A stretch of 64,000 nt of DNA from an uncultured Gammaproteobacteria bacterium (GTDB taxonomy: Bacteria; Patescibacteriota; Microgenomatia; UBA8517): the NCBI GenBank assembly GCA_964587425.1, contig CAZPLB010000001.1:30545-94544 (forward strand), read 5' to 3'. A model generated the notes under the pieces. It made no database searches. It saw only the letters and a list, made by a program, of their open reading frames with translations, and was not told the origin of the DNA. How positions within the stretch are numbered: the first letter of the stretch is position 1; the number at the start of each line of letters is the position of its first letter. Of the stretch, positions 1-47,765 are shown in pieces. Both the position numbers and the translations under genes were made by a program.

Positions 1-229
1 GTTTGTCTCTAAGTTGTTTTTCTATAAAATCATCACTTTTTACTATTTGGAGGTTAATTTGGAGCTCTTTTTGTTCCTTTTCAAGTTCTTTTATCCTATT
101 TTGTGCTTCTGTTATCTTGTCTCCAGAGTGGGCTACGTGATTTATGTTTTGAATAAGGGATATGGAGAGGATGACTGCGGCTATTAAAAATATCCAATTT
201 GCTATTTTTGTGAATTTATTTTTTAACAT
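1..229 (-). CDS. Partial CDS (start inside window, runs off window start): FtsB/DivIC-like septum formation initiator (N-terminal TM helix then coiled coil)
   Basis: Manual translation from ATG at 227-229 (minus): MLKNKFTKIANWIFLIAAVILSISLIQNINHVAHSGDKITEAQNRIKELEKEQKELQINLQ...; a TM helix then a heptad coiled coil is typical of FtsB/DivIC. Confidence 0.4.
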   Translation of the reverse strand, partial: MLKNKFTKIANWIFLIAAVILSISLIQNINHVAHSGDKITEAQNRIKELEKEQKELQINLQIVKSDDFIEKQLRDK

Positions 230-235
230 TTTTTG

Positions 236-310: not shown

Positions 311-1177
311 TTGTCATTTATGAATGAATCGTTAAATACAATTCTTCCAGGTTTTATTGATTACCTTAAGGGAAAAGGTAGATCTCCTGCCACCATCTTA
401 GCCTACAGGGCAGATCTTGGGCAACTCATCGAATTCATTACCGCTCGAAACAAAGCTACAGCTCTCCAGGTTAATGCTTCTGATATTGAGGGATTCCGCG
501 ACTATTTACTTGCCCAGAAATATACTCCAAAGTCAGTTTCCAGGAAACTTAATGCTGTCAAAACCTTTTTTGGATGGCTTCATGAAAACAACATTGTTAG
601 CTTTGATCCTTCAAAAACTGTGTCTCACCCCAAACTTGAAGCTCAGCCACCAAAATTCCTCTCCCCGCTTGAATATAGGGCACTAAGGGATACTGCAAGA
701 AGCGATATCAGGATTGCAACAATAATTGAGCTTATTTTGCAGACTGGGATGAGAATTTCAGAGATTGCTTCTTTGAAGAAAGAGCATATTAAAGAAGAAA
801 TCATAATAATTGAAGCTTATGCAACACAGAAGACAAGGGAGATACCTTTAAATCAGATAGCTAAAAACACTATACAAACATTTTTACAAATGCATCCAAG
901 CAGCGCTGAATTTATATTTGTAAGCAAGAACGGGAAGCCGCTTGCTATTCGAAACATTCGCGCAATGATTGATAGATATTTTCAGAAGGCAGAGGTTCCA
1001 CAGTATTCAGTTAATGATTTGCGTACCACTTTTGTAATTGAAAACTTAAAAAGAGGGGTTGATTTGGTTCTAATCTCTCAGGTAACTGGACACAAGAGAC
1101 TTTCGACCACTCAAAGTTATTTGGAGCTGGCTGGAGTCAAAGAACCTGGTAAAAAACAAAAATTAGAAGAGCTTTAA
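311..1177 (+). CDS. Tyrosine site-specific recombinase, XerC/XerD (phage integrase) family
   Basis: N-terminal SAM-like domain 'ILAYRADLGQL'; C-terminal catalytic region with 'HKRLSTTQSYLEL' (His..Arg..Tyr) typical of Xer/integrase. Confidence 0.85.
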   Translation: MSFMNESLNTILPGFIDYLKGKGRSPATILAYRADLGQLIEFITARNKATALQVNASDIEGFRDYLLAQKYTPKSVSRKLNAVKTFFGWLHENNIVSFDPSKTVSHPKLEAQPPKFLSPLEYRALRDTARSDIRIATIIELILQTGMRISEIASLKKEHIKEEIIIIEAYATQKTREIPLNQIAKNTIQTFLQMHPSSAEFIFVSKNGKPLAIRNIRAMIDRYFQKAEVPQYSVNDLRTTFVIENLKRGVDLVLISQVTGHKRLSTTQSYLELAGVKEPGKKQKLEEL

Positions 1178-2735: not shown

Positions 2736-5093
2736 TTAAAGTTTTGCGCGTCTTGTGATTTCTGCTTCAACCAACCTCATGTCTTTGCCATATCTTAGCC
2801 TACTCATTTCTATTATGATTTCTGCAATTCTTGGGTTTTCTGATGCTTTAATCTTTGCAATATCTTTAGTCATATCAAGTGAGAAAGGAGAGACGGGTTC
2901 ATTGCCAACAATTGTCTTTATGTATGCATGGTGTTTTTCTACATTCAAAAGATCATCCTCTGCAAAAACAGGGGTGAATTCATGGGTTAAGTAACTGGCA
3001 TCAGTTACTCCAACTCTATATGAGATGATTGTTCCCACATTTCCAAAAATTGCATTTTTAACTTCTTCTTCTACTTGTCCTATAAATTGGTTGGCAACGA
3101 TAAGACCAAGTCTGTATTTTCTAGCTTCAGATAGTATTACTGCAAAGTCTGGGGTGGCGAAGTTTTGAAACTCGTCAACATACAAATAGAAGTCACGGCG
3201 CTGACTTGGATCTTTAATGTCTACCCTACTCATAGCGGCCATTAGAATTCTTGGAACTATAATTAACCCCAAGAAGTTGGAGTTCTCTTCTCCCAAGCCT
3301 CCTTTGGCAAGATTAATGAGAAGGATTTTTCCTGTATCCATAATTTCTCTGAAATCAAAGGCGCTTTGGGATTGGCCAATGATGTTTCTGATGAGTTTAT
3401 TTGTAACAAACCTTCCAAATTTTGAAGTGATGTAGTCAAGAACCTCTGACTTATGGAAATCTGAGGTTTGGGCTATTTGATCAGTCCAATACCTTTTGAC
3501 TATTGGGTCGTCAACTCTTGGAAGGAGTTCTTGAACATATTTTGCATCTGTCAGAATTCTCATGATTTCAACAAAAGTTGAACCCGGCTCTGCACTCATG
3601 GCTGTTAACATGGCATTTCTAACTGCATGTTCAAACCTAGGTCCAACTATTCCAGTTTTGTATGGATCAAAAAGCTTGTACATCATATTAATTACAGCTG
3701 TTGCTACAAAGTGCTTTTGATCTTCTGTTTTTGCCTCAAGAAGATTTAGTCCCATGGGACGCTCTGTATCACTGGGGTTAAAGTAGATGACATCTTCAGC
3801 TCGCTCTGGGGGGATGAGCTTTAAGATATCTTCTATGGCGTCACCGTGGGGATCCATGAAGCAAAGCCCCTTACCTGCTCTAATGTCCTGTAAGATCATG
3901 TCTTTCAAAAGTTCTGATTTTCCAGTTCCTGTTTTACCTATGATGTAGACATGGCGCATACGATCTTCATTTCCAATATAGACAGGACGCTTTACTCCTC
4001 TATATGAACTTTCTCCAAGGTAGAGACCTGATGTTGGGATTTCAGATGGGGCCGGGGCAGTTTTGCTGTAGACCCAGTAAATATGAGGGGTGGTAATGAA
4101 CTTATTTGGGAAATGGAAAATGGTTGCCAACTCTTCTGAATTTAGTACTGATTTATGGGCGCCTCTGACGTTATACATTGGCTGATATCTATACAGAAAA
4201 TCCTCCATAAACATTGCTTTTCTTCTTACTTTTCTTCCACCTAATCCATTTAGGTCTCCATTGTATTGTTCAAAACTTGTACTAATATTTGTTAAGTGAG
4301 CCTTGGCGGAACCCTCACTTTGGGCAACAACTACAATTCTAACTGCAACTTCGAACCCTGGTTTTGCTATTTTATTTTCCACCGCTTCAAGGGTTTTGGC
4401 AGGAACACTAAACTTTGCTTTTTCTGGATCTGATTCCTGTTTTTTGGTGCTACTTATAAAACCCTTTCCTTCCTTTTGCCAAGGCAACTCTGCTGGAGAC
4501 AAAACTATTTGGATGGCTGCGGCTTCTCCTTCTCCCATTTTGGCAAGAGCTGACGTTATTGAGGACAGAGGATCAGTTGATAGTTCTCTAAATGTTTTAA
4601 TTGGGTAAAAACTGGGTTTTTTTAACTGAAGAGATTTATATGCTACTGCTCCATTTTCTGTAAAGATATTGTATTCTTCAACTTCTTGAATTTCGGCGTC
4701 TGGATAAGCTCCATGAACTTGTTTTTCAATCAAATCCTGCATCTTTTTGGGAGCCCAGATGTAGAACCTAATGTCCTCTTTTCTTGCAAGTATTTCAAAG
4801 GAAATAGTAGGCTGAATATCATATTTTTGTTTCCAACCTCCTTTTTTCATTGAAGAAAGCGATCCAATAAGTTGTTCCATTGCATCAATTTTTACTTCGT
4901 TGCCTCTTGCTACTCCCACTTGCAAGAGAACTGAGTCAATTGATCTTTCTTCTCTTTTTCTATTTTTAAATAATGTGAAGCCGATAAATCCTAGTGCAAA
5001 AAGAATAACTGAGAGAATGGCAATGAGGCCAAGAACCACAAAGATGGCCGCAAAATTGATTGTTGGAATTAAAGTAGACTCTTGTACAAACAT
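2736..5093 (-). CDS. TraG/TraD/VirD4-like type IV secretion coupling-protein-family ATPase with N-terminal TM segment and a long pre-ATPase domain
   Basis: N-terminal TM helix; Walker A 'IIGKTGTGKSELL' followed by 'CFMDPHGD'; Walker B/TraG-D_C-like 'LYVDEFQNFATPDFAVILSEARKYRLGLIVANQ'. Confidence 0.7.
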   Translation of the reverse strand: MFVQESTLIPTINFAAIFVVLGLIAILSVILFALGFIGFTLFKNRKREERSIDSVLLQVGVARGNEVKIDAMEQLIGSLSSMKKGGWKQKYDIQPTISFEILARKEDIRFYIWAPKKMQDLIEKQVHGAYPDAEIQEVEEYNIFTENGAVAYKSLQLKKPSFYPIKTFRELSTDPLSSITSALAKMGEGEAAAIQIVLSPAELPWQKEGKGFISSTKKQESDPEKAKFSVPAKTLEAVENKIAKPGFEVAVRIVVVAQSEGSAKAHLTNISTSFEQYNGDLNGLGGRKVRRKAMFMEDFLYRYQPMYNVRGAHKSVLNSEELATIFHFPNKFITTPHIYWVYSKTAPAPSEIPTSGLYLGESSYRGVKRPVYIGNEDRMRHVYIIGKTGTGKSELLKDMILQDIRAGKGLCFMDPHGDAIEDILKLIPPERAEDVIYFNPSDTERPMGLNLLEAKTEDQKHFVATAVINMMYKLFDPYKTGIVGPRFEHAVRNAMLTAMSAEPGSTFVEIMRILTDAKYVQELLPRVDDPIVKRYWTDQIAQTSDFHKSEVLDYITSKFGRFVTNKLIRNIIGQSQSAFDFREIMDTGKILLINLAKGGLGEENSNFLGLIIVPRILMAAMSRVDIKDPSQRRDFYLYVDEFQNFATPDFAVILSEARKYRLGLIVANQFIGQVEEEVKNAIFGNVGTIISYRVGVTDASYLTHEFTPVFAEDDLLNVEKHHAYIKTIVGNEPVSPFSLDMTKDIAKIKASENPRIAEIIIEMSRLRYGKDMRLVEAEITRRAKL

Positions 5094-5094
5094 G

Positions 5095-5418
5095 TTAGCT
5101 TTTAACTACGACTTGTTTTCCAAAATGAAATGCCTTTTTAATCATTCTTAACCAGAACAGTCCAAGCCATGTAATTGCATTTTCTATTTTTCCTTTGGAC
5201 CAACCCAGTAGTGTAGTTTGACTAGCTGGAATAGTTATTGTGGCAGCAGTATTTTGTGATGTCTGGATCATGGGTTTACCACTATCGTCTGTTACCTGTC
5301 CAGTAAAATTATTTGAGACAGCTGTAACTCCAACTTCTTGCAAGTTTTCAGGCACAGTTGGGGTTTCAGGAATTTCCTGAACAACACTTTCTGATTCTTT
5401 TTCGGGGAAGAGGGACAT
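5095..5418 (-). CDS. Hypothetical protein directly upstream of, and coupled to, the coupling ATPase (Ser/Thr/Gln-rich, C-terminal amphipathic segment)
   Basis: Stop codon abuts the ATPase start (5095 vs 5093). Confidence 0.35.
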   Translation of the reverse strand: MSLFPEKESESVVQEIPETPTVPENLQEVGVTAVSNNFTGQVTDDSGKPMIQTSQNTAATITIPASQTTLLGWSKGKIENAITWLGLFWLRMIKKAFHFGKQVVVKS

Positions 5419-5449: not shown

Positions 5450-5986
5450 TTATTTAGTTTTCCAGATTTCTTCAGTGAAGCCTTCGGACATGTTTACATA
5501 TCTTGAAAACATCCATAAATAATCTGAGAGTCTGTTTAAAAACTTTAATATTGTTGGCCTCACTTTTTCCTCTTTACTTAATGCCACTACCCTTCTTTCT
5601 GCTTTACGTGCCAAGGCTCTGGCGTAAAAAATCATAGTTCCCGTATTTGACCCTCCTGAAATTATGAAGTTGGTTACTTTGGGGAGTTTACTTTCCCAGA
5701 AGTCAATTTGTTTTTCCATTTTTTTAACTTTTGAAGAACTTAATTTTAAATCAGAACCGGCAAGAATTGAGGCAGTTGTGAATAAATCCAATTGAGTCTC
5801 TTTGATTAATTCCTCAACTTCTTTGTGTTTGGTGAAAGACTTGGCAATTCCAAGAAAACTATTCAATTCATCAATGGCACCTATTGCATTTACACGAAGT
5901 GAATCTTTACCAAGCCTCACTGGAGCATCTTTGGGGCTAATCATCCCTGTTTCTCCTTTGTCTCCTTTTTTGGTGTAGATTGGCAT
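5450..5986 (-). CDS. ATP:cob(I)alamin adenosyltransferase, PduO/MMAB type
   Basis: N-terminus 'MPIYTKKGDKGETGM' is the PduO-type signature. Confidence 0.85.
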   Translation of the reverse strand: MPIYTKKGDKGETGMISPKDAPVRLGKDSLRVNAIGAIDELNSFLGIAKSFTKHKEVEELIKETQLDLFTTASILAGSDLKLSSSKVKKMEKQIDFWESKLPKVTNFIISGGSNTGTMIFYARALARKAERRVVALSKEEKVRPTILKFLNRLSDYLWMFSRYVNMSEGFTEEIWKTK

Positions 5987-6019: not shown

Positions 6020-9000
6020 TTAACACTCAGCATGGCCACAGGAGTAACATTTTGCACAGCCTTCTTCTAATACCAAGCTTGCTTCCCCACAACTGGGACA
6101 AATGTCTTTGTGTGCCTTTTCAAGAAGACTAGGCTGCATGGTTACTTTTGGCACTACATGACCATTGCCTTCTGAGTCTTGGTAACCAATGAAGCCAAAG
6201 TGCATTCCTAGGGCTTTTGCTACAGCATCTGGAAGGCTTCTAACTTTGTTTACTCCAAAGCCAACTGATCCTGCTCCCCCAATTCCTTGGAGTTGTTCCA
6301 TGATTTCTCTAGCTCTTTCTTTTGCCGGGAGGTGATTTCCAAATCTAAGATTAGTTGAAATTAATCTTCCTAAAGCCTCTGCCATGGCTGCAAGTTCACT
6401 GCCTGCTTTTCCTACTGCGCAAAATACTTCAAATGGATTACCATCTTCATCTTGATTTACTGTGATGAAAGCATTGCCCATTGGGGTTTTTATTTTGTAT
6501 GTTGCCCCCTCTACTTTTACTGGGCGTTCTTTAATTGTAACCTCTGGTTTCTTTTCTTCTTCCTTCTTTTCATCAACTTTTGAAAGAACTCCCATGCGGC
6601 TTCCATCTCTAAAGTAAGTTACACCCTTGCAGCCTAGTTCATATGCCAAGGTATAAAGTTTTTTGACGTCATCTACTGTGTGAGAGTTAGGGGCATTGAC
6701 TGTTTTACTAATGGATGAGTCGACATATTCTTGGATTTTTGCCTGGACACGGACGTGCTCTTCTGGAGTTAGTTCACTTGCGCTTACAAAATAGTTAGGT
6801 ACTGTTTCACCTTGGTGCCTGTCCATCCACTCTTGGTAGAGAGGGTGATTAACTATGTGAACTCCAGTTCTGTCTGTTCTTTTGTAACTAAATTCATAAA
6901 CTGGTTCTATCCCAGAGCTTACTCCTGCCAAAAGAGATATAGTTCCAGTTGGAGCTTGGGTCAAGATGACAGCATTCCTAATTCCCTGGTCTGCAATTTT
7001 TTCTTGAATTTCAACAGGAAGTTTTTTGATGAATTGTCCTTGGAGATATTTTTCTTTTACGAATCCACCAAATACTCCTTTTTCTTTAGCGAGGTCGCTT
7101 GAAGTATTGTAGGCAGTATCACGAATGGTTTTGTATATTTTTTCAATTGTGACAAGAGATTCATCGGATCCATATCGAAGACCCATTTTTATTAGAGCGT
7201 CCCCTAACCCAAGCGTTCCAATACCAGTTCTTCTGATGTTCATTTGTGCCTTTTTATTTTCTTCGTAGAAATAATAGTTTGCATCAACTACGTTATCTAG
7301 GAATCGTGTAGCTGTTGCTGTGTGTTCTGCCAGGCTTTCATAATTCATTTGTCCATTTTCAACAAAAGCAGAGAGATTTAAATGGCCGAGGTTACAGACT
7401 CCCCATGCTCCCAATCCTTGCTCTCCACAGTTGTGAACTACAAAACCATTTGCAATGAATGAATGAGTCAATGGCTCTGTTAGATCGTATACCCATTCTT
7501 TTCCGGTAAACTTCAAGTCTTCAAAAGTTACTTGAAATTTCTCTTTGTAAGTACCATCTTTGTAGCCTTTTAGGGCATCAATTAGTTTTGCATTTTTATA
7601 GTCAACTAAGAATCCAATTTCTTTTGCAAATTTCCACAAATTATCTTTTGATATGACAAGATCGTGATATTCTTTGCAGAAATAGTCTTTCCTTCCACCT
7701 TTGCCGTCTGGCATCGAACGGTAACCGGCGTCTCTTCGGTTGCAATATATTTTTGAAGCAACTCCAAAGTTTAAAAGAAGTCTCTGGACATCTTGGAGCA
7801 TGTTGTAACTAACTGAAGTTAGCCTAACACTTACTCCTTTATCTGCTGTGCCTGCAACATGTCCGTCTGCTGTAAATAAAGCTTGTAAGAATCCTTTTTG
7901 CATATCTTCACTACCTGTGAATATTTTTTCTGGGACATTTATTTTATTTCCCGGAGTAATGCCATATTCAGAGACTAGTTTCCAAAGTCTTGTAGACCCT
8001 ACCCTTGCTTCATCTCTTTCGTCAATCCAGCCGACTCCCACTTTGTAATCTCTCTGGTTGATTTGCATTCCATCTACCAAATGGTTTACCATACTCGCAA
8101 ATTTGGGGGCGAGTTGCTGTTTTTCCTGTCCAAAGAAGGAGAGTACAGCTTCTGTTGCTTTCATTGTTCCGTCTCCTACCAACCAGCCTAAAACTTGTCC
8201 AAGTTCTTCGCTGCCAACTTTACCAAACCCTCCTTTTTGGTTTGAAATAAGAACCTTGTTTCCTTTTTTTAGATCCTTTGCTTTTTTCCACCCTTTGTCT
8301 GTCATCACTTGGTGGTCATTTGTAAGTTTTAATTCATATCCTTCTCTTGTTGTTAGTTTGTAAACTTCTTTAAACCCTGTTTTTACTGTTTTTGAACTTT
8401 TTGTCCATGAACCTTTATTAAATCTTCCATCGATTAAAACGTTTGGTTCTATTTTTGAATCAAATAAGTAAGAAGCTCTTAATAGACCATCTTCAGTTGA
8501 AACCAATGTGTCTCCTGTAATACAAGGGTTTGTTGCAATAATTTTTTCGAAGTACCAAGTGTTACTCATTTTGTTGTACCTATCGATAAATACTGCACCT
8601 GGTTCTGCACTTCTCCAAGCTGCTTCACAAATTGAATTCCAGACGTCCTTTGCTTTTACTGTTTTGTAAAGTTTTACTGGATAACCTTTTTCCTTCCATC
8701 CTTTCAAATCACCGTCCCAGACTTCATCATAGTTTTCATGCGTTGTGTCTGGAAATTCCAATTTCCAATCTCCATCTACTTTAACCGCTTCCATAAAGTC
8801 ATCTGATACACAAACTGAAAGATTTGCTCCTGGGATTTTTGTTAAGTCTTGTTTTACTGTTATGAATTCTTCAACATCTGGGTGCCAGTCGTTAAGCATT
8901 AACATGAGGGCTCCACGTCTACTGCCACCTTGTTGGATGACATCGTGGTTGGCTGTTGAATAGAGACTTGCCCAGTTGACAGGACCCGATGATAGGCCAT

Positions 9001-9517
9001 TAACCTTTCTTACTCTTGCTCCTCTTGGACGAAGAGAACTTAGGTTGATTCCAACTCCACCAGCACGGGATTGGATTTCTACTGTCTTTGTTATATTGTC
9101 CATAATTCCTCCACGGCTGTCGCTTGGAGACGGGATAACATAGCAATTGTAGTAAGTTACTTCATATGGAGTTCCTGCTCCTGAAAGGATTCTCCCCGCT
9201 GGAACAAACTTAAAGCCTTGCATTGCTTTGTAGAATTTTTCTTCCCAGGGTTTTCTATCTTTTGGTTTTTCAACTTGAGAGATGCCCCAAGCAACACGTC
9301 TCCACATTTGTTCTGGATATTTCTCGAGTGCTCTTCCCTCCTCTTCATCTTTAAGAGAATATCGGTCGAGAAAAACTTCTTGTCTGAAGCCATCCAAGAC
9401 TGTTGGATTGGCAGGGGCATCAAAAACAAACTCCTTGTTTCTTTTTTTAGGAGTTACAATTTGTTTCTTTTTGTTTTTCTCTTTTTCAATAACTACTGTT
9501 GCTGGCATATATTTCAA
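6020..9517 (-). CDS. nrdJ: Ribonucleotide reductase, probably adenosylcobalamin-dependent class II (NrdJ), interrupted by an intein; C-terminal Cys-rich zinc-ribbon-like tail
   Basis: Active-site 'ATNPC|...|GEQ' split by intein; conserved blocks 'RAGGVGINLSSLRPRGA', 'CGEQ'; C-terminus 'CPSCGE...CAKCYSCGH'; adjacent PduO supports AdoCbl dependence. Confidence 0.8.
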   Translation of the reverse strand: MKYMPATVVIEKEKNKKKQIVTPKKRNKEFVFDAPANPTVLDGFRQEVFLDRYSLKDEEEGRALEKYPEQMWRRVAWGISQVEKPKDRKPWEEKFYKAMQGFKFVPAGRILSGAGTPYEVTYYNCYVIPSPSDSRGGIMDNITKTVEIQSRAGGVGINLSSLRPRGARVRKVNGLSSGPVNWASLYSTANHDVIQQGGSRRGALMLMLNDWHPDVEEFITVKQDLTKIPGANLSVCVSDDFMEAVKVDGDWKLEFPDTTHENYDEVWDGDLKGWKEKGYPVKLYKTVKAKDVWNSICEAAWRSAEPGAVFIDRYNKMSNTWYFEKIIATNPCITGDTLVSTEDGLLRASYLFDSKIEPNVLIDGRFNKGSWTKSSKTVKTGFKEVYKLTTREGYELKLTNDHQVMTDKGWKKAKDLKKGNKVLISNQKGGFGKVGSEELGQVLGWLVGDGTMKATEAVLSFFGQEKQQLAPKFASMVNHLVDGMQINQRDYKVGVGWIDERDEARVGSTRLWKLVSEYGITPGNKINVPEKIFTGSEDMQKGFLQALFTADGHVAGTADKGVSVRLTSVSYNMLQDVQRLLLNFGVASKIYCNRRDAGYRSMPDGKGGRKDYFCKEYHDLVISKDNLWKFAKEIGFLVDYKNAKLIDALKGYKDGTYKEKFQVTFEDLKFTGKEWVYDLTEPLTHSFIANGFVVHNCGEQGLGAWGVCNLGHLNLSAFVENGQMNYESLAEHTATATRFLDNVVDANYYFYEENKKAQMNIRRTGIGTLGLGDALIKMGLRYGSDESLVTIEKIYKTIRDTAYNTSSDLAKEKGVFGGFVKEKYLQGQFIKKLPVEIQEKIADQGIRNAVILTQAPTGTISLLAGVSSGIEPVYEFSYKRTDRTGVHIVNHPLYQEWMDRHQGETVPNYFVSASELTPEEHVRVQAKIQEYVDSSISKTVNAPNSHTVDDVKKLYTLAYELGCKGVTYFRDGSRMGVLSKVDEKKEEEKKPEVTIKERPVKVEGATYKIKTPMGNAFITVNQDEDGNPFEVFCAVGKAGSELAAMAEALGRLISTNLRFGNHLPAKERAREIMEQLQGIGGAGSVGFGVNKVRSLPDAVAKALGMHFGFIGYQDSEGNGHVVPKVTMQPSLLEKAHKDICPSCGEASLVLEEGCAKCYSCGHAEC
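7430..8524 (-). mobile_element. Intein (365 aa) with LAGLIDADG-type homing endonuclease, inserted in the RNR active-site NPC|GE motif
   Basis: Starts 'CITGDTLV', ends 'VVHN' followed by extein Cys; LAGLIDADG-like blocks 'LGWLVGDGT' and 'LQALFTADGHV'. Confidence 0.8.
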
Positions 9518-11469: not shown

Positions 11470-13734
11470 ATGCTCATGGAAAAGAAGGTTGAAGAGATCT
11501 CAGAAAAACGAAAAGAGATCTTGGAGAAAGTTACTAATCAAAAAAAATACGGTAATATCTTTAGTAGATTGAGGCACAATGTTCACCTACAGAAGAAAGT
11601 AATTTTCTTTGGAGTAGTTGGAACTGCTTTGATTTGGTTTTTTTCTGGAGTCCCTCTACCCACTACTCTTGGACAGCAAGTTGCAGTATCGAGCAAAATA
11701 ATGGACAGGAATGGGAAACTTATATATGAAGTTTTTTCTGAAAAGAAAAGAAGTCCTATAAAAATATCTGAACTTCCTGATTCTGTTAAAAATGCCACGG
11801 TTTCAATTGAGGATAAAGACTTTTACAAACATAGTGCATTTTCACCAACTGGAATTCTTCGCGCCATTTACAGCACTGTCTTCAAGAGAAAAGTCCAAGG
11901 AGGGTCTACTCTTACTCAACAACTGGTCAGAACTGCGTTTTTGACAACTGACAGAAGTTTAATTCGTAAGGCAAGAGAATTTTTCCTTGCAATGATAGTT
12001 GAAGCCATTTATACCAAAGATCAGATACTTGAAGCATATTTAAATCAAGTTCCATATGGGGGAAGCGCATATGGAATTGAGGCAGCCAGTGAACTTTACT
12101 TTGACAAACCAGCCAAAGATTTAACACTTCCTGAGGCATCGCTTTTGGCTGGGTTAACCCAGGCTCCAACACAATATTCTCCTTTTGGTGCACATCCAGA
12201 ACTGGCAAAACAGAGACAAGAGGTAGTCTTGCAGACAATGGTTGACAATAAATACATATCATTTGATGAGGCAACTGTTGCCAAAACTACTGAACTGAAG
12301 TTTGCAACGCCTCAAAACATTAATGCTCCACACTTTGCTCTTTGGATTAAGGATCAACTAGCTCGTAAGTATGGTGACTTGTTGGTTGAAGAAGGCGGAC
12401 TTCGAGTCACTACTACTCTTGACCTTGATTTACAAAATTTTGCACAAGATGCTGTCGCAACAGAAGTTGGTAAATTGAAAAAGCAAAATGTAGGAAATGG
12501 GGCATTGATTGCAACTCGCCCTGGAACAGGAGAAATCTTGGCAATGGTCGGGAGCAAAGACTATTTTGCAAAAGATGAAGATGGACAAGTAAATGTGATA
12601 CTTGCAAATCGACAGCCTGGATCATCAATTAAACCACTTAATTATGGGCTTGCAATCAAGGACAAAAAAATAACTCCTGCAACTATTATTGCTGATGTTC
12701 CAACATGCTTTGTTGTAGCTGGTCAGCCTTCATATTGTCCTACCAATTATGACCATAAATATCATGGCGGGGTTGCTGCCAGATTTGCGCTTGGAAATTC
12801 ATTTAATATTCCTGCTGTTCGAGTGTTGGATTTAAATGGAATAGATAACTTTATAAATTTTGCAACAAGCCTTGGAATTACAACATTTACCGATCCTTCA
12901 CAGTATGGACTTTCATTAACTCTTGGAGGAGGAGAAGTGAGGCCATACGATATGGCTGAAGCATATGGAGTGTTTGCAAATCAAGGAATCAAAGAGCCAC
13001 TAACTGCAATTTTGAAGGTTACGGATTGGAAAGGAAAAGTATATGAAGATGACACACCTAAAGAACTTGAGGGAGATAGGGTACTTGGAGAAGATGTTTC
13101 ATTTTTGGTTTCGCATATTTTACTAGACAATAATGCAAGAACTGAGGCCTTTGGACCAAGTTCATTTTTGAATGTCAAAGGACACCCTGAAGTATCTGTC
13201 AAAACTGGAACTACTAATGACAGAAGAGACAATTGGACAATTGGCTACACTGGACAAATAGTTGTTGTTACATGGGTTGGAAATAATGACAACTCACCAA
13301 TGAGCGGGGCTGTGTCTGGAGTTTCTGGGGCATCCCCCATTTGGAACAAAGTGATTAAGTTTGCTCTCGATAAATCTGAGAAGGGTGCATACAACTCAAA
13401 AGATGAGGGGCACGCTTGGCCAAAGCAACCATCAAACGTTGTTGGTGCAAATGTTTGTGCAACTACTGGGGCAAGGCCAACAAGTACCGACCCCAATGTT
13501 CCAAATTGCCCTGCAAGATTTGAATACTTCTTAGAGGGTACTGTTCCGGCTGCGGCTGATGAACTGAGACAAGATGTTGTTGTCTACAAAGATACACATA
13601 TGCTGGCTGGATCAAAAGCACTTCCAGAGCAAGTTCAAACAGAAAACCATCCAGTATTAATTGATCCATTGAAAACTTTGATGTGTCTTGACTGTCCTCT
13701 ACCAACAGAGCCGGTTATTATTAGATATCCATAA
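11470..13734 (+). CDS. Bifunctional penicillin-binding protein 1A (GT51 transglycosylase + transpeptidase)
   Basis: GT51 motifs 'EDKDFYKH', 'GGSTLTQQL'; transpeptidase 'SSIKP' (SxxK). Confidence 0.9.
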   Translation: MLMEKKVEEISEKRKEILEKVTNQKKYGNIFSRLRHNVHLQKKVIFFGVVGTALIWFFSGVPLPTTLGQQVAVSSKIMDRNGKLIYEVFSEKKRSPIKISELPDSVKNATVSIEDKDFYKHSAFSPTGILRAIYSTVFKRKVQGGSTLTQQLVRTAFLTTDRSLIRKAREFFLAMIVEAIYTKDQILEAYLNQVPYGGSAYGIEAASELYFDKPAKDLTLPEASLLAGLTQAPTQYSPFGAHPELAKQRQEVVLQTMVDNKYISFDEATVAKTTELKFATPQNINAPHFALWIKDQLARKYGDLLVEEGGLRVTTTLDLDLQNFAQDAVATEVGKLKKQNVGNGALIATRPGTGEILAMVGSKDYFAKDEDGQVNVILANRQPGSSIKPLNYGLAIKDKKITPATIIADVPTCFVVAGQPSYCPTNYDHKYHGGVAARFALGNSFNIPAVRVLDLNGIDNFINFATSLGITTFTDPSQYGLSLTLGGGEVRPYDMAEAYGVFANQGIKEPLTAILKVTDWKGKVYEDDTPKELEGDRVLGEDVSFLVSHILLDNNARTEAFGPSSFLNVKGHPEVSVKTGTTNDRRDNWTIGYTGQIVVVTWVGNNDNSPMSGAVSGVSGASPIWNKVIKFALDKSEKGAYNSKDEGHAWPKQPSNVVGANVCATTGARPTSTDPNVPNCPARFEYFLEGTVPAAADELRQDVVVYKDTHMLAGSKALPEQVQTENHPVLIDPLKTLMCLDCPLPTEPVIIRYP

Positions 13735-13793: not shown

Positions 13794-16217
13794 GTGGTTA
13801 AGCTTCGAAAGAAAGTTTCAAATTTAAAAATTTTTGCCAGTATCTTAGTTTTTATTGGGAAACCTTTTTACATCATCTTTAGTTATGTTGTTATTGGAGT
13901 ATTAACTTTCTTCTACGTCATTGGAAATAGAAGTAGGATCTTGGTTGAAAAAACTTTTGCAGTAACTCAAAAATTAATTAAGAGAGCTAAGAAGAAAAAG
14001 GTTCGTTCAAAGAAAAAGGCAAAGAAGTTTAAATTTCCAAAACTGATTTTCCCAAGTATTTCTTTTACCCTCCCAAATTTCTCTTTCTCTCCAAAAGTTT
14101 TTTCCAAGAGATTTGTACACATAACGAAAACAAAGTCTTCAAAAAAGAAGTTACAAAAGAAAAATGTTCTTCTCGAAAAATTAAATATTTCGAAAGTATT
14201 ACTTTTTTCTAAATTAAGTGTTGGGAGAAAAGTAAAGATTGGTGGAATAATTTTTGTGTGTTTGGCTTCTATTGTTTTTTTCATATGGAATGGTGTTTTT
14301 CGCAGTCTCCCCTCTTCAAAAGAATTGATGAGCCGTAAGATTCAGGTTTCAACTAAGATACTAGACAGAAACGGACAACTCTTGTATGAAATTTACAAAG
14401 ATCAAAACAGAACTCCCGTTTCTCTTTCTCAAGTCCCAAATGAAGTAAAAGCAGCTACTCTTGCTTCTGAGGATGCTGATTTTTACAACCATCCAGGGTT
14501 TTCTGTAAAAGGAATTGTTAGGGCTTTATTTAATGATGTCACTCATGGACAACTGAGTGGAGGATCTACAATTACACAGCAGTTGGTTAAGAATGCATTA
14601 CTTACACCACAGAAAACTTTTACAAGAAAAATTAAAGAACTTGTTCTTTCTCTTGAAGTAGAGGCAAATTTCTCTAAAGATCAGATTCTTGAGATGTATC
14701 TCAATGAGGTTTCGTATGGAGGAAGTGCGTACGGAATACAGGAGGCTTCAAGGATTTATTTCGGAAAGGATGTGACTGAAATTGATTTGGCTGAAGCTGC
14801 ACTCTTGGCAGGTCTTCCTAAAAGTCCAACACAATACTCCCCGCATGGAGCTGACCCTGAACTTGCTATTGAACGACAGAGGGAGGTTTTGAAACTGATG
14901 TTTGATAATGGATTTATAACAAAGGAACAACAAGATGCCGCACTGAGTGAGAAACTCACTTTTTCAGCAAGCGATATCTCAATTAAAGCACCACATTTTG
15001 TAATGTATGTTAAACAGCAATTGGTTGATAAATTTGGAGAGGAAATGGTTGAATCTGGAGGACTAACTGTGACAACTACTCTTGACTACTCTATTCAAAA
15101 AATGGCTGAGGGGGTTGTTAAAAAACAAATTGGGCAATTGAAAAATTATCATGTCACGAATGGAGCGGCTATAGTTATGGATCCCAAAACTGGAGAAATA
15201 CTCGCCATGGTTGGATCTGAGGATTACTTCAACACAAAGAATGACGGTGAAGTGAACGTGACCACATCACTCCAGGAACCTGGGTCTTTTGTAAAGGTAA
15301 TTAATTATGCATATGCATTGGGGCATGGGTTTACTCCGGCTTCCATAATTTCTGATACTCCCACTAAGTTTATTGTTCCAGGGCAAGCGCCATATATTCC
15401 TGTTAATTATGATGGCAAGTTTGTTGGAAATGTCACACTTCGCTCCGCCTTAGCACAGTCTAGAAACATTCCAGCTGTTAAAGTTGAAGAGTCATATGGG
15501 GTTGATAAAATGGTTGCCTTGGGGCAGAAGATGGGAATTACTACATGGAAGGATCCCTCTTTATATGGACTATCTTTGACTCTTGGAGGAGGAAGCGCCA
15601 AGCTAATTGACTTGGCACGAGTTGGGTCAACAATTGCAAACTATGGAGCGAGGCCTCCCTTGCTTTCAGTCTTGAGGGTAACTGATTACCGCGGAAAAAG
15701 ATTAATTTACGGGTGCGATAGTGAAACTTGCACTGAAGAGCAAGTCATAACTCCTGGAGTAGCATTTTTATTAATTGATATATTAAAGGACAACAAGGCT
15801 CGTGCTCCTGAATTTGGATTCAGATCTCAACTTGTTGTTACTGGGCACCCTGAGATTGCTGTAAAAACTGGGACGAGCAATAGTTTTCGAGACAATTTGA
15901 CGATAGGGTTTAGCCAGAAATACTTAACTGCTGTATGGGTTGGAAACAATGACAATTCACCTATGAATAGAATTGCATCAGGGATTACAGGGGCAGCACC
16001 CATTTGGAATGAAATCATGAATAGACTAATGGCACAAGAGCCAAGCCTGGCTTGGGAGGCACCTGATGACGTACTTTCAATGCAGGTGTGCGGGTACAGT
16101 GAATGGTTTCTGAAGGAGGCGAAAGTAAAAGTTAATTGCGGTTTAAATAGCACTGCAAAAGCAAATAGTAATATAAAAAAGGAAGATATATTAGATGGAA
16201 TTAGTACTTCGCGTTAG
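13794..16217 (+). CDS. Second bifunctional PBP1A paralog (tandem), with lysine-rich N-terminal extension
   Basis: 'EDADFYNHPGF', 'GGSTITQQL', 'SFVK'; same domain order as upstream gene. Confidence 0.85.
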   Translation: MVKLRKKVSNLKIFASILVFIGKPFYIIFSYVVIGVLTFFYVIGNRSRILVEKTFAVTQKLIKRAKKKKVRSKKKAKKFKFPKLIFPSISFTLPNFSFSPKVFSKRFVHITKTKSSKKKLQKKNVLLEKLNISKVLLFSKLSVGRKVKIGGIIFVCLASIVFFIWNGVFRSLPSSKELMSRKIQVSTKILDRNGQLLYEIYKDQNRTPVSLSQVPNEVKAATLASEDADFYNHPGFSVKGIVRALFNDVTHGQLSGGSTITQQLVKNALLTPQKTFTRKIKELVLSLEVEANFSKDQILEMYLNEVSYGGSAYGIQEASRIYFGKDVTEIDLAEAALLAGLPKSPTQYSPHGADPELAIERQREVLKLMFDNGFITKEQQDAALSEKLTFSASDISIKAPHFVMYVKQQLVDKFGEEMVESGGLTVTTTLDYSIQKMAEGVVKKQIGQLKNYHVTNGAAIVMDPKTGEILAMVGSEDYFNTKNDGEVNVTTSLQEPGSFVKVINYAYALGHGFTPASIISDTPTKFIVPGQAPYIPVNYDGKFVGNVTLRSALAQSRNIPAVKVEESYGVDKMVALGQKMGITTWKDPSLYGLSLTLGGGSAKLIDLARVGSTIANYGARPPLLSVLRVTDYRGKRLIYGCDSETCTEEQVITPGVAFLLIDILKDNKARAPEFGFRSQLVVTGHPEIAVKTGTSNSFRDNLTIGFSQKYLTAVWVGNNDNSPMNRIASGITGAAPIWNEIMNRLMAQEPSLAWEAPDDVLSMQVCGYSEWFLKEAKVKVNCGLNSTAKANSNIKKEDILDGISTSR

Positions 16218-21735: not shown

Positions 21736-22011
21736 TTATGTCTGGAGTTCTTTTTCAACTCCTTGAGAAATGTATTGCTTCATCAAAGTTTGATATGGCA
21801 TATCTTTTTTGTTAGCTACAGACTTTACTTTGGCTAGTAAGCTTGTGGTGACACGAAGTGAAATGGGCTGTCTAGTCAATTTAAGATTGGGAAAGATGGC
21901 ATGTCTGGCTTTAGACCAATCAAAATATTCGCTAGTGTCAACTTTGGCCCAAAAGTCTCTTTCTTCATCTTCATTTTTGAACTCTGGTATTTTTTTAAGA
22001 TTTTTTTTCAT
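21736..22011 (-). CDS. brnA: BrnA antitoxin (CopG/RHH-like)
   Basis: 'KNEDEERDFWAK...ISLRV...MPYQTLMK' BrnA pattern; overlaps brnT. Confidence 0.8.
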   Translation of the reverse strand: MKKNLKKIPEFKNEDEERDFWAKVDTSEYFDWSKARHAIFPNLKLTRQPISLRVTTSLLAKVKSVANKKDMPYQTLMKQYISQGVEKELQT

Positions 22012-22336
22012 ATAGTCTTTTCTCTTTTTTATTTGCCGATCTTACTGAAATTATTCTGATTTTCTTATTTCTAATCGTAAATATTACGTTTAATAATTTA
22101 TTATTTTCACTCTTACCTATAATTTGATATCTATTTTCTGTTTTGGAATGCTTAGAATCCTCGGAAAAAACAGACTTTTCATCTAAAAAAACCTGTTCTG
22201 CTTCTTCGTTATTGATTCTATGCTTCGTAAAATTTTTATTTATATTCCCTTTGTCCCACTCAAATTCAAGCGGTTCAGGAATAATATCCATTATATTGGA
22301 GTATATACCAGGTAAATACAGATTGTCAAGGGTCAA
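21995..22336 (-). CDS. brnT: BrnT toxin (DUF497 ribonuclease)
   Basis: 'FEWDKGNINKNFTKH' and 'IRIISVRSANKKEKRLY' signature blocks. Confidence 0.8.
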   Translation of the reverse strand: MTLDNLYLPGIYSNIMDIIPEPLEFEWDKGNINKNFTKHRINNEEAEQVFLDEKSVFSEDSKHSKTENRYQIIGKSENNKLLNVIFTIRNKKIRIISVRSANKKEKRLYEKKS

Positions 22337-34827: not shown

Positions 34828-35136
34828 CTACAAAGTGATTGTGCTTTTGTCTTCCACATATTGACGAATCAAAAGTCCAATAAGAGTTTGGTATGCAACA
34901 TTTTTTCTTTTTGCTTTTGCTTTTATTCTGACCAAGTCTTCATTTTTTATTCTTAATGTAACGCTCTTGCTTTTTTGTAGTTCCAGATAATTTTTGGCTG
35001 CTTCCTGGAACATTTTTTTTGTCTTTTCTAAATTTTTGGTACTAACAAATTCACCTTTATTCAAGGCCTCTTCTAGTTCTAGTTCGTATTTATCTAAAAC
35101 TAAATTTTCAAATGGGTTAAGTTTATTTTTTGGCAT
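34828..35136 (-). CDS. CopG/BrnA-like antitoxin
   Basis: 'VTLRIKNEDLVRIKAKA...VAYQTLI' RHH pattern; overlaps upstream toxin by 14 nt. Confidence 0.55.
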   Translation of the reverse strand: MPKNKLNPFENLVLDKYELELEEALNKGEFVSTKNLEKTKKMFQEAAKNYLELQKSKSVTLRIKNEDLVRIKAKAKRKNVAYQTLIGLLIRQYVEDKSTITL

Positions 35137-35404
35137 ATTTTTTAGTTAATTTTCGGCTTGGATACAAAGTTTTTAAAAACCACGTACTTTTCTCTTTGTT
35201 AATCGCGTATGGTACTGCATATACATATTCTTTTATTTTTACTACTAAAATTCTCTGATTTGGATATCTCTTTGCATTGTGGTGTTTTAAATCACCCAAT
35301 ATTTTTTTATTTTCAATGCATTCGATTATATCCTCAAAACCGACTCCTCTGGTTTCTTTTAGAATTAAGTTTTTCTCTTCAGAGAAATCAATTTTGAATA
35401 TCAC
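35123..35404 (-). CDS. BrnT/DUF497-like toxin (divergent)
   Basis: 'IFKIDFSEEKN...RGVGFEDI' resembles the BrnT N-terminal block; paired with a CopG-like gene. Confidence 0.45.
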   Translation of the reverse strand: MIFKIDFSEEKNLILKETRGVGFEDIIECIENKKILGDLKHHNAKRYPNQRILVVKIKEYVYAVPYAINKEKSTWFLKTLYPSRKLTKKYAKK

Positions 35405-41288: not shown

Positions 41289-41573
41289 ATGGTGTATATT
41301 GTAAATATGTTAAGGGTAAATATTTACATACTAGAGGAAGTAGATAATAAAATAGCCTTCCTTGCCAAATCTATGGGAATTAAGAAGGCGGAAGTTGTTC
41401 GTTCTGCACTAGACCTTGGTTTGAAAAGCCTTAGACCCAAATCCGTTAGTGCTCAAGGTCTCTTGGATTTTGTGAAATTGACAGAAAAGATTCCCACCAA
41501 AAATAAACTGCCGAAGGATTTTATCAAGAATTTGGATTATTATACGTGGGGAGGGAGCAGGCGTGATCAATAA
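41289..41573 (+). CDS. vapB: Ribbon-helix-helix antitoxin (VapB/CopG-like)
   Basis: 'KAEVVRSALDLGL' RHH; overlaps downstream PIN gene. Confidence 0.6.
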   Translation: MVYIVNMLRVNIYILEEVDNKIAFLAKSMGIKKAEVVRSALDLGLKSLRPKSVSAQGLLDFVKLTEKIPTKNKLPKDFIKNLDYYTWGGSRRDQ

Positions 41574-41982
41574 TATTGCGATTGTGGATTCAGATGCATT
41601 GATAGCCTTGGCTCTAGAAAAAGATCCAAATCATGAAAAAGCAAAGGCGACTGCAATTAGGCTTTTAGCGAAGAATTTTGAGATCATCTTTCCAGATACA
41701 GTGTTTCCTGAGGCAATAACATCTCTCGTGAGAGCTGCAAATGAACCACAAAAAGCACATATTATAAATAAACAGCTTCAGGCTGGGGTGTTTCAAGTAG
41801 AATATGTAGATAAAGAAATACTTTCGAGCGCAAGTAGATTGTTTGAGAAAACTGAGTCAAAACAGAACACCTTCTTTGATTCAATCGTAGTGGCTACAGC
41901 AGAAAAACTGGGTACCAAAACAATTTTTTCTTTTGACAATTGGTACCCCAAATTAGGTTTTACCCTTGCTTCAAATATTTAA
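41563..41982 (+). CDS. vapC: PIN-domain toxin VapC
   Basis: 'IVDSDALIAL' N-terminal Asp, C-terminal 'DSIVVATAEKLG...FSFD'. Confidence 0.75.
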   Translation: MINNIAIVDSDALIALALEKDPNHEKAKATAIRLLAKNFEIIFPDTVFPEAITSLVRAANEPQKAHIINKQLQAGVFQVEYVDKEILSSASRLFEKTESKQNTFFDSIVVATAEKLGTKTIFSFDNWYPKLGFTLASNI

Positions 41983-47196: not shown

Positions 47197-47490
47197 TTAT
47201 TTTGGCGAGATTGAGGAGTTTAATTCTTTATTCACTCTCTCTGCCAAAAATATTTTCATTAAAGACTGATAAGGGACATCGCGGGAATTGGCGATTTCCT
47301 TAATTCTCATCAATAGAAATGCTGGTAAGCGAAGAGATATTGATTCTGTGGTTGGTTTGAGTTTGGATAAATCTAGTTTTATTGGTTTTTCGAAATCAAA
47401 ATATTCACTACTATCTGCTTTTGCCCAAAAATCCCTTTCTTCATCCTCATTTTTAAATTTTGGTATTGATTTCAATTTTCTTTTAGACAT
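47197..47490 (-). CDS. brnA: BrnA antitoxin (paralog of the 21736-22011 gene)
   Basis: 'KNEDEERDFWAKADSSEYFDF...ISLRLP...VPYQSLMK'. Confidence 0.8.
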   Translation of the reverse strand: MSKRKLKSIPKFKNEDEERDFWAKADSSEYFDFEKPIKLDLSKLKPTTESISLRLPAFLLMRIKEIANSRDVPYQSLMKIFLAERVNKELNSSISPK

Positions 47491-47765
47491 GTCTTCCTTT
47501 CTTTTTTATTTTGTTTTCTTGCTGAAATTATTCTTATTTTATCTGCTCTAATAGTAAAAATGATTGATAAAAATTTAGTTTTGTCTGTAACTCCTAATGC
47601 TAAAAACCTTTTTTCTTTTAACGAATGCTTCTTGTCCGGAAAAATTTTAACTGGTTTATTAAAAAATATTTCTTCTATTTCTTTGGAATGAACCTTATGT
47701 TTATCCCAATTCTTAGTTAAATTACCCTTGTCCCAATCAAATTTTACTGGGACAGGTAACTTCAT
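47472..47765 (-). CDS. brnT: BrnT toxin (DUF497)
   Basis: 'FDWDKGNLTKNWDKH...IRIISARKQNKKERK'. Confidence 0.85.
   Translation of the reverse strand: MKLPVPVKFDWDKGNLTKNWDKHKVHSKEIEEIFFNKPVKIFPDKKHSLKEKRFLALGVTDKTKFLSIIFTIRADKIRIISARKQNKKERKTCLKEN

Follow-up and report, generated by a model that had tools for sequence, protein, structure and literature searches.

The DNA described here is a stretch of 64,000 nucleotides (contig CAZPLB010000001.1 of assembly GCA_964587425.1, positions 30,545 to 94,544 of the forward strand), called the window below, from an uncultured bacterium titled a gammaproteobacterium and placed by GTDB in the Microgenomatia (UBA8517) of the Patescibacteriota. Near its beginning lies a gene for a membrane-anchored ATPase of 785 residues, directly preceded by a gene for a protein of 107 residues. 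From the sequence alone, the initial annotation had described the larger product as an orphan ATPase of the type IV coupling protein (T4CP) kind with a long N-terminal domain, and had proposed that, together with a Xer-type recombinase, an HExxH protease and a tRNA-like element, it could mark a degraded integrative element or a DNA-uptake/export device of an episymbiont. The protein is found to belong to a large family, defined by Pfam DUF8128, in which an N-terminal domain with the predicted fold of the VirB4 N-terminal domain precedes an ATPase of T4CP type. Its gene is probably a core gene of the lineage, and its product probably serves a type IV secretion system (T4SS).

The ATPase and its sequence motifs

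The 785-residue open reading frame (ORF), its N-terminal transmembrane (TM) anchor and the roughly 340 residues ahead of the T4CP-type ATPase were confirmed by ORF calling, hydropathy and an AlphaFold2 (AF2) model. In the hydropathy profile a lone hydrophobic stretch at residues ~9-42 is followed by the basic sequence KNRKREER and, because of the positive-inside rule, the protein downstream of the TM helix is predicted to be cytoplasmic. The block that had been read as a Walker A motif with 'CFMDPHGD' is present as GKTGTGKS (Table 1) and LCFMDPHGD (residues 409-417). Within the Walker A motif, G386, G389, G391 and K392 do not vary among 69 homologues or across members from the candidate phyla radiation (CPR), plasmids and phages. 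D640 and E641 of the Walker B motif are invariant or nearly so among homologues, again including CPR, plasmid and phage members; in some phage homologues the surroundings of this motif are divergent, with DE or E kept.

Among Pfam models TrwB_AAD_bind matches residues 378-677 with 32.9 bits (cutoff 20.5). DUF87 is borderline, at 23.6 bits against 23.2, and FtsK_SpoIIIE (PF01580) stays under its cutoff of 24 with 15.9 bits, over the P-loop only. The Walker B motif itself is clear, and the TraG-D_C-like character that had been ascribed to its region falls just short, the model scoring 20.8 bits over residues 636-694 against a cutoff of 22. The T4SS-DNA_transf model gave no match to the protein in the Pfam scan, nor did the VirB4 models CagE_TrbE_VirB, AAA_10 and P-loop_TraG, which readily detect the true VirB4s of phage G and of the loci L007 and L038 (loci are given as L numbers). 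When PDB sequences were searched with a profile of the family at E ≤ 1e-4, TrwB (6e-7) and DotL (1.3e-5) alone were recovered, and neither a VirB4 nor an FtsK chain. The best sequence matches, in models and structures alike, are thus with coupling proteins and not with FtsK, which supports the coupling-protein-like character first proposed.

The protein is identical to a database protein (P0001) that carries PF26449 (DUF8128) in the precomputed Pfam assignments, as do all of its listed homologues. The long N-terminal domain is therefore present as described, and it is a family-wide Pfam domain rather than a peculiarity of this gene. Databases already name such proteins 'type IV secretion system DNA-binding domain-containing protein'.

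Table 1. Positions in the window of the ATPase gene, its parts and the neighbouring features
Feature	Position	Strand	Basis or remark
Gene for 785-residue membrane-anchored DUF8128 + T4CP-type ATPase	2736..5093	-	ORF call, Pfam, AF2
Single N-terminal TM helix, residues 14-43	4965..5054	-	Hydropathy, AF2
N-terminal alpha/beta domain (Pfam DUF8128), residues 44-352	4038..4964	-	Predicted VirB4 N-terminal-domain fold; alpha/beta part in AF2 model 54-325
FtsK/HerA-superfamily ATPase domain, T4CP type, residues 357-740	2874..4025	-	Pfam, NCBIfam, Foldseek
Walker A GKTGTGKS, residues 386-393	3915..3938	-	Motif; invariance in alignments
All-alpha insertion in ATPase domain, residues 457-572	3378..3725	-	AF2; position of TrwB all-alpha domain; inside TrwB_AAD_bind match 378-677
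Walker B FYLYVDE, residues 635-641	3171..3191	-	Motif; alignments
Conserved C-terminal helical tail, residues 745-785, motif SRL+YG...VEAEI..R	2739..2861	-	AF2 helices 745-751, 754-768, 772-784
Gene for 107-residue partner protein	5095..5418	-	ORF call; stops 1 nt short of ATPase start codon
PduO-type cobalamin adenosyltransferase	5450-5986	-	Directly upstream of small gene
Intein-containing ribonucleotide reductase (RNR)	6020-9517	-	Upstream of PduO
XerC/D-like tyrosine recombinase, convergent with ATPase gene	311..1177	+	Profile matches
DivIC/FtsB-like gene, 5' part, continues beyond window start, divergent from xer	1..232	-	Translation
tRNA-Ile, TAT anticodon	2283-2357	-	
Class A penicillin-binding protein (PBP), first of tandem pair	11470-13734	+	Transgly + Transpeptidase
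Class A PBP, second of tandem pair	13794-16217	+	Transgly + Transpeptidase

Predicted structure

The AF2 model of the full protein, built with a 69-sequence alignment, has a mean pLDDT of 89.4. In Foldseek its top full-length matches are TrwK, the VirB4 of R388 (E 6e-17, ~880 aligned columns, 7-10% identity), followed by HerA, TrwB, Cag-beta and DotL; the match to TrwB (E 1e-11) extends over ~410 columns with a TM-score of ~0.64, normalised to TrwB. Several positions of the C-terminal tail are nearly invariant in homologues, and its motif can be aligned in a haloarchaeal homologue too. Modelled alone, the N-terminal domain reached a pLDDT of 91.4 and a pTM of 0.90 and, when it was compared with PDB structures, all of the top 14 Foldseek matches were TrwK chains (E 3e-8 to 2e-5). 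The DUF8128 domain is predicted from these models to have the fold of the VirB4 N-terminal domain; since the PDB sequence matches are with T4CPs only, the protein would combine an N-domain of VirB4 type with an engine of coupling-protein type.

With the coupling proteins TrwB, DotL and Cag-beta the protein has in common a membrane anchor, an ATPase of the FtsK/HerA superfamily, the Walker motifs and a predicted all-alpha insertion, but it differs from them in the additional ~300-residue VirB4-like domain between the TM helix and the ATPase. It resembles VirB4 (TrwK) in carrying this N-domain ahead of the ATPase domain; its TM helix is fused directly, whereas the anchor of VirB4 is supplied by the separate VirB3. 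HerA helicases, which have a HAS-barrel N-domain and a NurA-type nuclease partner, differ in that the N-domain of the window protein has the predicted VirB4 fold, no nuclease gene is adjacent to its gene, and DUF87 is borderline. In the R388 machine the VirB4 N-domains touch the membrane, VirB3 and VirB8 (review, PMC12857230).

Homologues in plasmids, phages and archaea

A plasmid search gave 376 matching records (Bacillus, Streptomyces, Staphylococcus, haloarchaea and Sulfolobus), 95 of them covering at least 80% of the protein. Full-length homologues that head operons of Bacillaceae plasmids have 81-89% coverage and 22-30% identity; those of B. methanolicus pBM69 and of 27-kb B. subtilis plasmids, with 833-885 residues, align over 83-89% of its length, N-domain included, with about 26% identity and E about 1e-50. 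On pBM69 and on one of the 27-kb plasmids the homologue, named a 'DUF87 domain-containing protein', is the first gene of an operon with the order ATPase-Replic_Relax-(small)-TcpC-...-AAA_10 VirB4 (387 bits). As it heads a monoderm conjugation operon that has a separate VirB4, it fills the coupling-protein slot there. The N-domain and ATPase motifs of these proteins align with those of the window protein, from which they differ in being plasmid-borne, longer, and partnered by Replic_Relax, TcpC and VirB4; the window gene has no such partners nearby.

The PHROG 5156 profile matches residues 230-782 with E 6e-101, and tblastn found homologues in 60 phage genomes, nearly all of Bacillus type. Thirty-six of the 60 cover at least 80% of the protein, the full-length matches having 81-88% coverage and 22-24% identity. 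Unlike the window protein, these are phage-encoded and flanked either by ParM-like and Replic_Relax genes, as in the SPO1-like phage CampHawk, where gp129 sits between the two, or by a VirB4-like gene, as in phage G, where gp156 adjoins the VirB4-like gp155. Further phage members are ORF201 of 0305phi8-36 and proteins of 55-kb B. subtilis phages. The module of phage G (L006 972-7337) also holds gp150, which is weakly pilin-like (E 5e-4, custom pilin hidden Markov model, HMM), and that of CampHawk (L004 3815-9340) has small ORFs between the ParM-like gene and the ATPase gene; it is a plasmid-like module in large Bacillus phages.

On a plasmid of Haladaptatus salinisoli (L008 8908-12837) the N-domain and the ATPase are encoded by adjacent separate genes. 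A protein of 350 residues aligns to residues 55-351 (E 2e-15) and the product of the next gene, a T4CP-like ATPase of 930 residues, to residues 353-781 (E 8e-32), C-terminal motif included. Just ahead of the split pair lies a gene for a 1,081-residue protein with weak similarity to gp155 of phage G. Plasmid, phage, archaeal and Patescibacteria members have in common the N-domain and junction motifs SFEI..IRFY, Q195, R252 and EELA..H.P.

Besides these relatives there is a subfamily of ~1,370-1,510 residues (P0210-P0283), in which a different N-terminal region of ~950 residues precedes a C-terminal ATPase that shares 48-53% identity with the window protein (residues ~300-784). It may represent a second T4CP-type paralogue of Patescibacteria genomes.

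Distribution, conservation and gene order

The homologue search returned more than 6,300 close homologues; those listed all carry PF26449 and nearly all also PF10412. The best 120 are 75-81% identical to the window protein, and those among them with a source name are from Patescibacteria (Microgenomates, Woesebacteria). In an exhaustive search of clusters at 50% identity 23,407 had E ≤ 1e-3 and 6,001 had E ≤ 1e-30. A scan of GTDB with one genome per species found relatives in at least 598 species genomes, and nearly all of the 80 loci kept for inspection are titled Patescibacteria or carry obviously mistaken labels. Identity is 58-76% in the Woese-, Levy-, Gottesman-, Roizman-, Curtiss-, Davies-, Collier- and Shapirobacteria inspected, and 41-49% in Dojkabacteria/WS6, WWE3, Saccharibacteria-titled and Doudnabacteria genomes. 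Identity thus declines with taxonomic distance, as vertical descent would have it. Orthologues L019 and L031 come from the complete Patescibacteria genomes CP055307.1 and CP066685.1. As to the labels, many metagenome-assembled genomes (MAGs) annotated by third parties, with a Patescibacteria-type gene and synteny, are titled 'uncultured Gammaproteobacteria', 'Pseudomonadales', 'Bathyarchaeia', 'Limisphaerales' and 'Methylomirabilota' (L014, L016, L020, L021, L023, L064, L092 and others); these are probably mislabelled or contaminated bins.

The genes round the ATPase form an orderly block. The small gene, PduO and RNR lie on the same strand as the ATPase gene and are separated from one another by 31-33 nt; the other near neighbours are a DUF1801 gene and the tRNA gene. 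From gaps of 1-33 nt we infer that RNR-PduO-small gene-ATPase-DUF1801 is an operon and, because promoter and terminator scans round the locus gave sites no more frequent than in shuffled controls, its structure is read from this spacing. The order PBP-PBP-HEPN-like-Rce1-like-DUF5667-RNR-PduO-small gene-ATPase is the same in several Woesebacteria relatives, one of them a complete chromosome, and the portion from RNR to the ATPase recurs in L001, L002, L003 and many GTDB loci. Xer is found downstream in 3 of 4 Woesebacteria loci compared. Of the proteins encoded in the block, the ATPase is conserved best: in six relatives it has 63-81% identity to the window protein, ahead of RNR (41-77%), PBP (44-70%), Xer (44-63%), PduO (37-51%) and the small partner (31-51%). 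With the catalytic motifs intact, these comparisons show the ATPase gene to be under strong purifying selection, as judged from sequence.

The proposal that the ATPase, the Xer-type recombinase, the HExxH protein and the tRNA are what is left of an integrative or conjugative element in this genome does not survive these comparisons and is now very improbable. It drew on a T4CP-type gene that lacks partner genes and has a tyrosine recombinase and a tRNA gene close by, and the plasmid and phage relatives of the family could be added in its favour. Against it, the same gene order surrounds the ATPase in many species, the complete Woesebacteria chromosome included, and the gene is better conserved than RNR, the PBPs and Xer. 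GC over the ATPase gene is ordinary (0.386-0.391, against 0.327-0.397 in windows elsewhere), and no att-like repeats, at the tRNA 3' end or otherwise, were found in positions 1-17 kb of the window. The sole long direct repeats of the region are those of the tandem PBP paralogues, with 74-78% DNA identity over 60-87 nt, and this pair too is kept in relatives. The recombinase, whose presence profile matches confirmed, is XerC/D-like and paired with DivIC across classes. The HExxH protein has 149 residues, a HEQTH motif and a weak M56-like match, and the 'tRNA-like element' is a regular tRNA-Ile. Since the syntenic context is conserved and no element boundaries are seen, the reading as an element remnant fails. 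Domestication may have taken place in the distant past, at the lineage's root, but this would differ from a degraded element in this genome.

The small upstream gene

The junction of the two genes reads TAA-c-ATG, with the stop codon at 5097-5095, a lone spacer base at 5094 and the ATG starting at 5093; the 1-nt distance first reported is correct. The N-terminal part of the 107-residue protein is acidic and rich in proline, and its C-terminal amphipathic helix (WSKG..ITWLGLFWLRMIKKA) is conserved. The protein had no matches in Pfam, NCBIfam, PADLOC or PHROG, and hydropathy predicts no TM segment. Its orthologues in L001 and L002 are 39-46% identical.

In a survey by local ORF calling and HMMER of 84 relative loci and the flank of the window itself (85 sequences), 76 have a same-strand ORF of 60-280 residues ending between -250 and +80 nt from the ATPase start, which often overlaps or abuts it. 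An iterated HMM placed 46 of these 76 ORFs in one family with the 107-residue protein, with the common C-terminal motif rWLaew.lR.iKk; the rest are too divergent to call. As far as sequence can tell, then, the small gene is a conserved, fast-evolving and tightly coupled partner of the ATPase gene. In some lineages a gene for a protein of ~670-780 residues lies just upstream of the pair (L011 5329-7605, L039 7366-9375, L087 6749-9085). The L011 and L039 proteins are homologous (E 6e-37) and that of L087 is similar in position only; they have no significant Pfam match, the L087 protein having a sub-threshold one to PP2C_2.

The Xer-DivIC neighbourhood

On the other side of the ATPase gene the arrangement of the window, with a convergent xer gene and then a DivIC/FtsB-like gene, is widespread. 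Of 51 GTDB loci whose flanks were long enough, 27 have Xer no more than 3.5 kb downstream, convergent in 26 of them, and 18 have it within 1 kb; it was found upstream of the ATPase in none of 56. Xer is itself followed by DivIC in 18 of those 27, and the DivIC Pfam family occurs at the equivalent position in L001 and L011. The Xer-DivIC adjacency reaches the Dojkabacteria/WS6 orthologues (44-49% identity), in which other synteny is gone. Xer is thus a conserved neighbour, which does not show a functional link with the ATPase.

A dif-like site beside xer was considered and rejected. The motif CCTATAATATCA-N17-19-GTCAA that recurs in the Xer-DivIC spacers of L022, L031, L041, L088, L032, L029, L056 and others is, when read on the xer strand, TTGACT - 17/18 nt - TGnTATTAT, a -35 box with an extended -10, and so a conserved sigma70-type promoter for xer. 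The window spacer (1178-1260) has a degenerate version of it only. Because the genes are convergent and xer has this promoter of its own, the ATPase gene and xer are not co-transcribed.

Relation to type IV secretion

Clusters of T4SS_pilin genes lie 2-9 kb from the ATPase gene in 5 species and a true VirB4 gene ~7 kb from it in 2 (L038, L058), but pilin or VirB4 genes occur within 10 kb in only 7 of 84 relative loci. According to Quinonero-Coronel et al. (2025; PMC12102498), 2,918 Patescibacteria genomes hold 5,713 VirD4-type homologues and almost no relaxases, and the chromosomal T4SS of Patescibacteria is like those of mating pair formation (MPF) type MPF-FATA and derived from monoderm conjugation systems. 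The plasmid, phage and archaeal homologues described above fit that origin. The window gene resembles the T4CP homologues of that study in being of an abundant VirD4 type, mostly far from virB4, in genomes nearly free of relaxases, with exaptation suspected. Since most of those homologues are orphans far from virB4, an orphan coupling ATPase in an episymbiont is a published pattern. A DUF8128 or VirB4-like N-domain, a small partner, Xer-DivIC, and full-length phage, plasmid and archaeal homologues are not described in the passages of that study consulted here. More widely, the VirB4 fold of DUF8128, the split archaeal form, the phage homologues, the small partner and the Xer-DivIC neighbourhood were not found in the literature searched; they are features of the family and not of this window in particular.

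The reading that we favour, with a probability of roughly 0.55, is that the 785-residue protein is a ring-forming membrane ATPase of the T4CP (VirD4/TrwB) type that feeds a relaxase-less chromosomal T4SS, and that the gene encoding it belongs to the chromosomal core of a Woesebacteria-like patescibacterium of the Microgenomatia, in which it has been inherited vertically. The ATPase would have come from the coupling-protein slot of monoderm and archaeal conjugation modules and would in this lineage have been retained without a relaxase. It would assemble as a hexamer at the membrane, where the VirB4-like N-domain may dock on membrane components of the T4SS, on the translationally coupled 107-residue partner, or on both. 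ATP hydrolysis would drive the recruitment of a substrate, protein or DNA, and its feeding to the T4SS, which is encoded elsewhere in Patescibacteria genomes. Its gene differs from those of T4CPs such as TrwB in lacking a nearby relaxase or MPF gene and in being chromosomal, vertically inherited and exceptionally conserved. A DNA-uptake/export device of an episymbiont, as first proposed, may or may not be what the ATPase serves.

Several findings weigh against this reading. Classical T4CPs have two TM helices and just one is predicted here. The NCBIfam matches are to TraD, VirD4 (CD1115), TrbC and CedD models, but at 24-44 bits they are far below the cutoffs of 250-800. Within the window the ATPase is, as first noted, an orphan: queries with a custom T4SS-pilin HMM (E ≤ 10), plasmid and phage VirB4s and Replic_Relax matched none of the ORFs of at least 50 residues in the 64 kb. 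Its most deeply conserved neighbour is Xer-DivIC and not a T4SS gene. Just 148 of the 5,713 Patescibacteria t4cp genes are near virB4, and in Southlakia epibionticum t4cp is dispensable and other T4SS genes are essential, for which reason the authors state that exaptation cannot be ruled out (PMC12102498). The essential T4SS cluster of Wang et al. (2023) has no recognisable coupling protein or relaxase (PMC10633639). A search of the literature found no experiments on any DUF8128 protein, nor the term 'DUF8128' itself.

Alternative interpretations

The neighbourhood and the superfamily have led us to consider whether the ATPase was exapted as an FtsK-like septal DNA translocase, independent of a T4SS and working with Xer and DivIC in chromosome dimer resolution or in clearing DNA from the septum. 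This we hold to be unlikely. T4CPs and FtsK/SpoIIIE are of one superfamily, and the protein is like FtsK membrane-anchored and encoded near Xer and a divisome gene; the one-sided, convergent placement of xer with DivIC next to it, its survival in Dojkabacteria/WS6 and its recurrence in the window would suit such a role, as would the extreme conservation of the ATPase, and the report that epibiotic growth can do without t4cp (PMC12102498) permits a role outside the T4SS. Yet the genes are convergent and xer has an independent promoter, the adjacency is missing in about half of the loci, among them the Saccharibacteria-titled, Doudnabacteria-titled and L009 loci, and the plasmid homologues are located in conjugation operons. 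FtsK has four TM helices, whereas the window protein has one, along with an all-alpha insertion of T4CP type, and the FtsK_SpoIIIE model stays below cutoff. A winged-helix gamma domain was not evident, though no dedicated search for it was made. In the Saccharibacterium TM7x one gene is annotated as ftsK (PMC10768705), and Patescibacteria are therefore not obviously without FtsK.

On the structural evidence the protein might be taken for a divergent VirB4, the signature ATPase of T4SSs, having the two domains of VirB4 and being preceded by a small gene, in the usual place of virB3. The TrwK matches of the whole model, the fold of the N-domain and the translational coupling of the small gene all point that way. 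VirB3 has a TM segment, however, and the small partner has none predicted; the VirB4 sequence models are silent where T4CP models match, and the all-alpha insertion is covered by the T4CP model TrwB_AAD_bind. Moreover, a separate bona fide VirB4 coexists with the protein in L038, L058 and the Bacillaceae plasmid operons, in which the DUF8128 protein holds the coupling-protein position beside a relaxase-like gene. We thus regard a VirB4 identity as quite unlikely. Almost negligible is a part in anti-phage defence, as a HerA/DUF87-type or MADS Mad8-like ATPase, which is suggested by PADLOC, where the ATPase domain matches mad8 with 59 bits and there are weak P-loop matches to HerA and DndH, and by the DUF87 score just above cutoff. 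The mad8 match is limited to the generic ATPase core, the neighbours are PduO, RNR, DUF1801 and a tRNA with no defence gene adjacent, no other mad genes or nuclease partner were seen in the annotated relative loci, and defence islands do not typically show the conservation and synteny of core genes. With the partner genes lacking, the PADLOC and HerA candidates were rejected.

Other features of the window

The remaining genes of the window, judged by eye, are housekeeping genes: glycolytic and pentose-phosphate enzymes, the two PBPs, RpoD, DnaG, a DEAD-box helicase and ABC transporters, with toxin-antitoxin pairs among them. Type II toxin-antitoxin loci lie at 21736-22336, 47197-47765, 34828-35404 and 41289-41982 and comprise two BrnT/CopG-type pairs, a CopG/BrnA-type antitoxin-like gene beside an unassigned 93-residue ORF, and a PIN-domain toxin after an unassigned 94-residue ORF. 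For housekeeping DNA in a small genome this is a dense set. RNR owes its length of 1,165 residues to an intein with a LAGLIDADG homing endonuclease (Pfam Intein_splicing and LAGLIDADG_3 on the near-identical L003 gene); the orthologues in L001 and L002 have ~800 residues and no intein. Bacteria usually decode AUA by means of a lysidine-modified CAT tRNA, and a tRNA-Ile with the anticodon UAU is uncommon, so the TAT tRNA-Ile of the window may be informative on AUA decoding in this lineage.

Implications

In itself the gene is ordinary for its lineage, a core gene and not an integrated element. The interest lies in the family. Patescibacteria are host-dependent, and at least one cultured member needs a T4SS in order to grow, with no coupling protein or relaxase tied to that T4SS. 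The DUF8128 family is an obvious candidate for the missing motor: it is found in hundreds of species, is locally better conserved than RNR and has a dedicated small partner. Given the binding of VirB4 N-domains to VirB3 and VirB8, its VirB4-type N-domain offers a concrete hypothesis of docking.

A bolder proposal, which we hold tentatively and as rather doubtful, is that the DUF8128 ATPases are a third and ancient branch of T4SS motors, a 'hybrid' of VirB4 and T4CP common to archaeal plasmids, Firmicute plasmids and phages, and Patescibacteria, and that in the last of these it has become an indispensable housekeeping machine, either as feeder of T4SS substrates or as an FtsK-like partner of Xer and DivIC. 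If the former were true, the essential T4SS behind the epibiotic lifestyle, which has no relaxase, would find in this family the ATPase, missing so far, that feeds it substrates; if the latter, it would be a septal partner of Xer and DivIC comparable to FtsK. As it joins Patescibacteria with Bacillaceae plasmids, SPO1-like and G phages and haloarchaeal plasmids, the family also bears on how VirB4 and the coupling proteins diverged.

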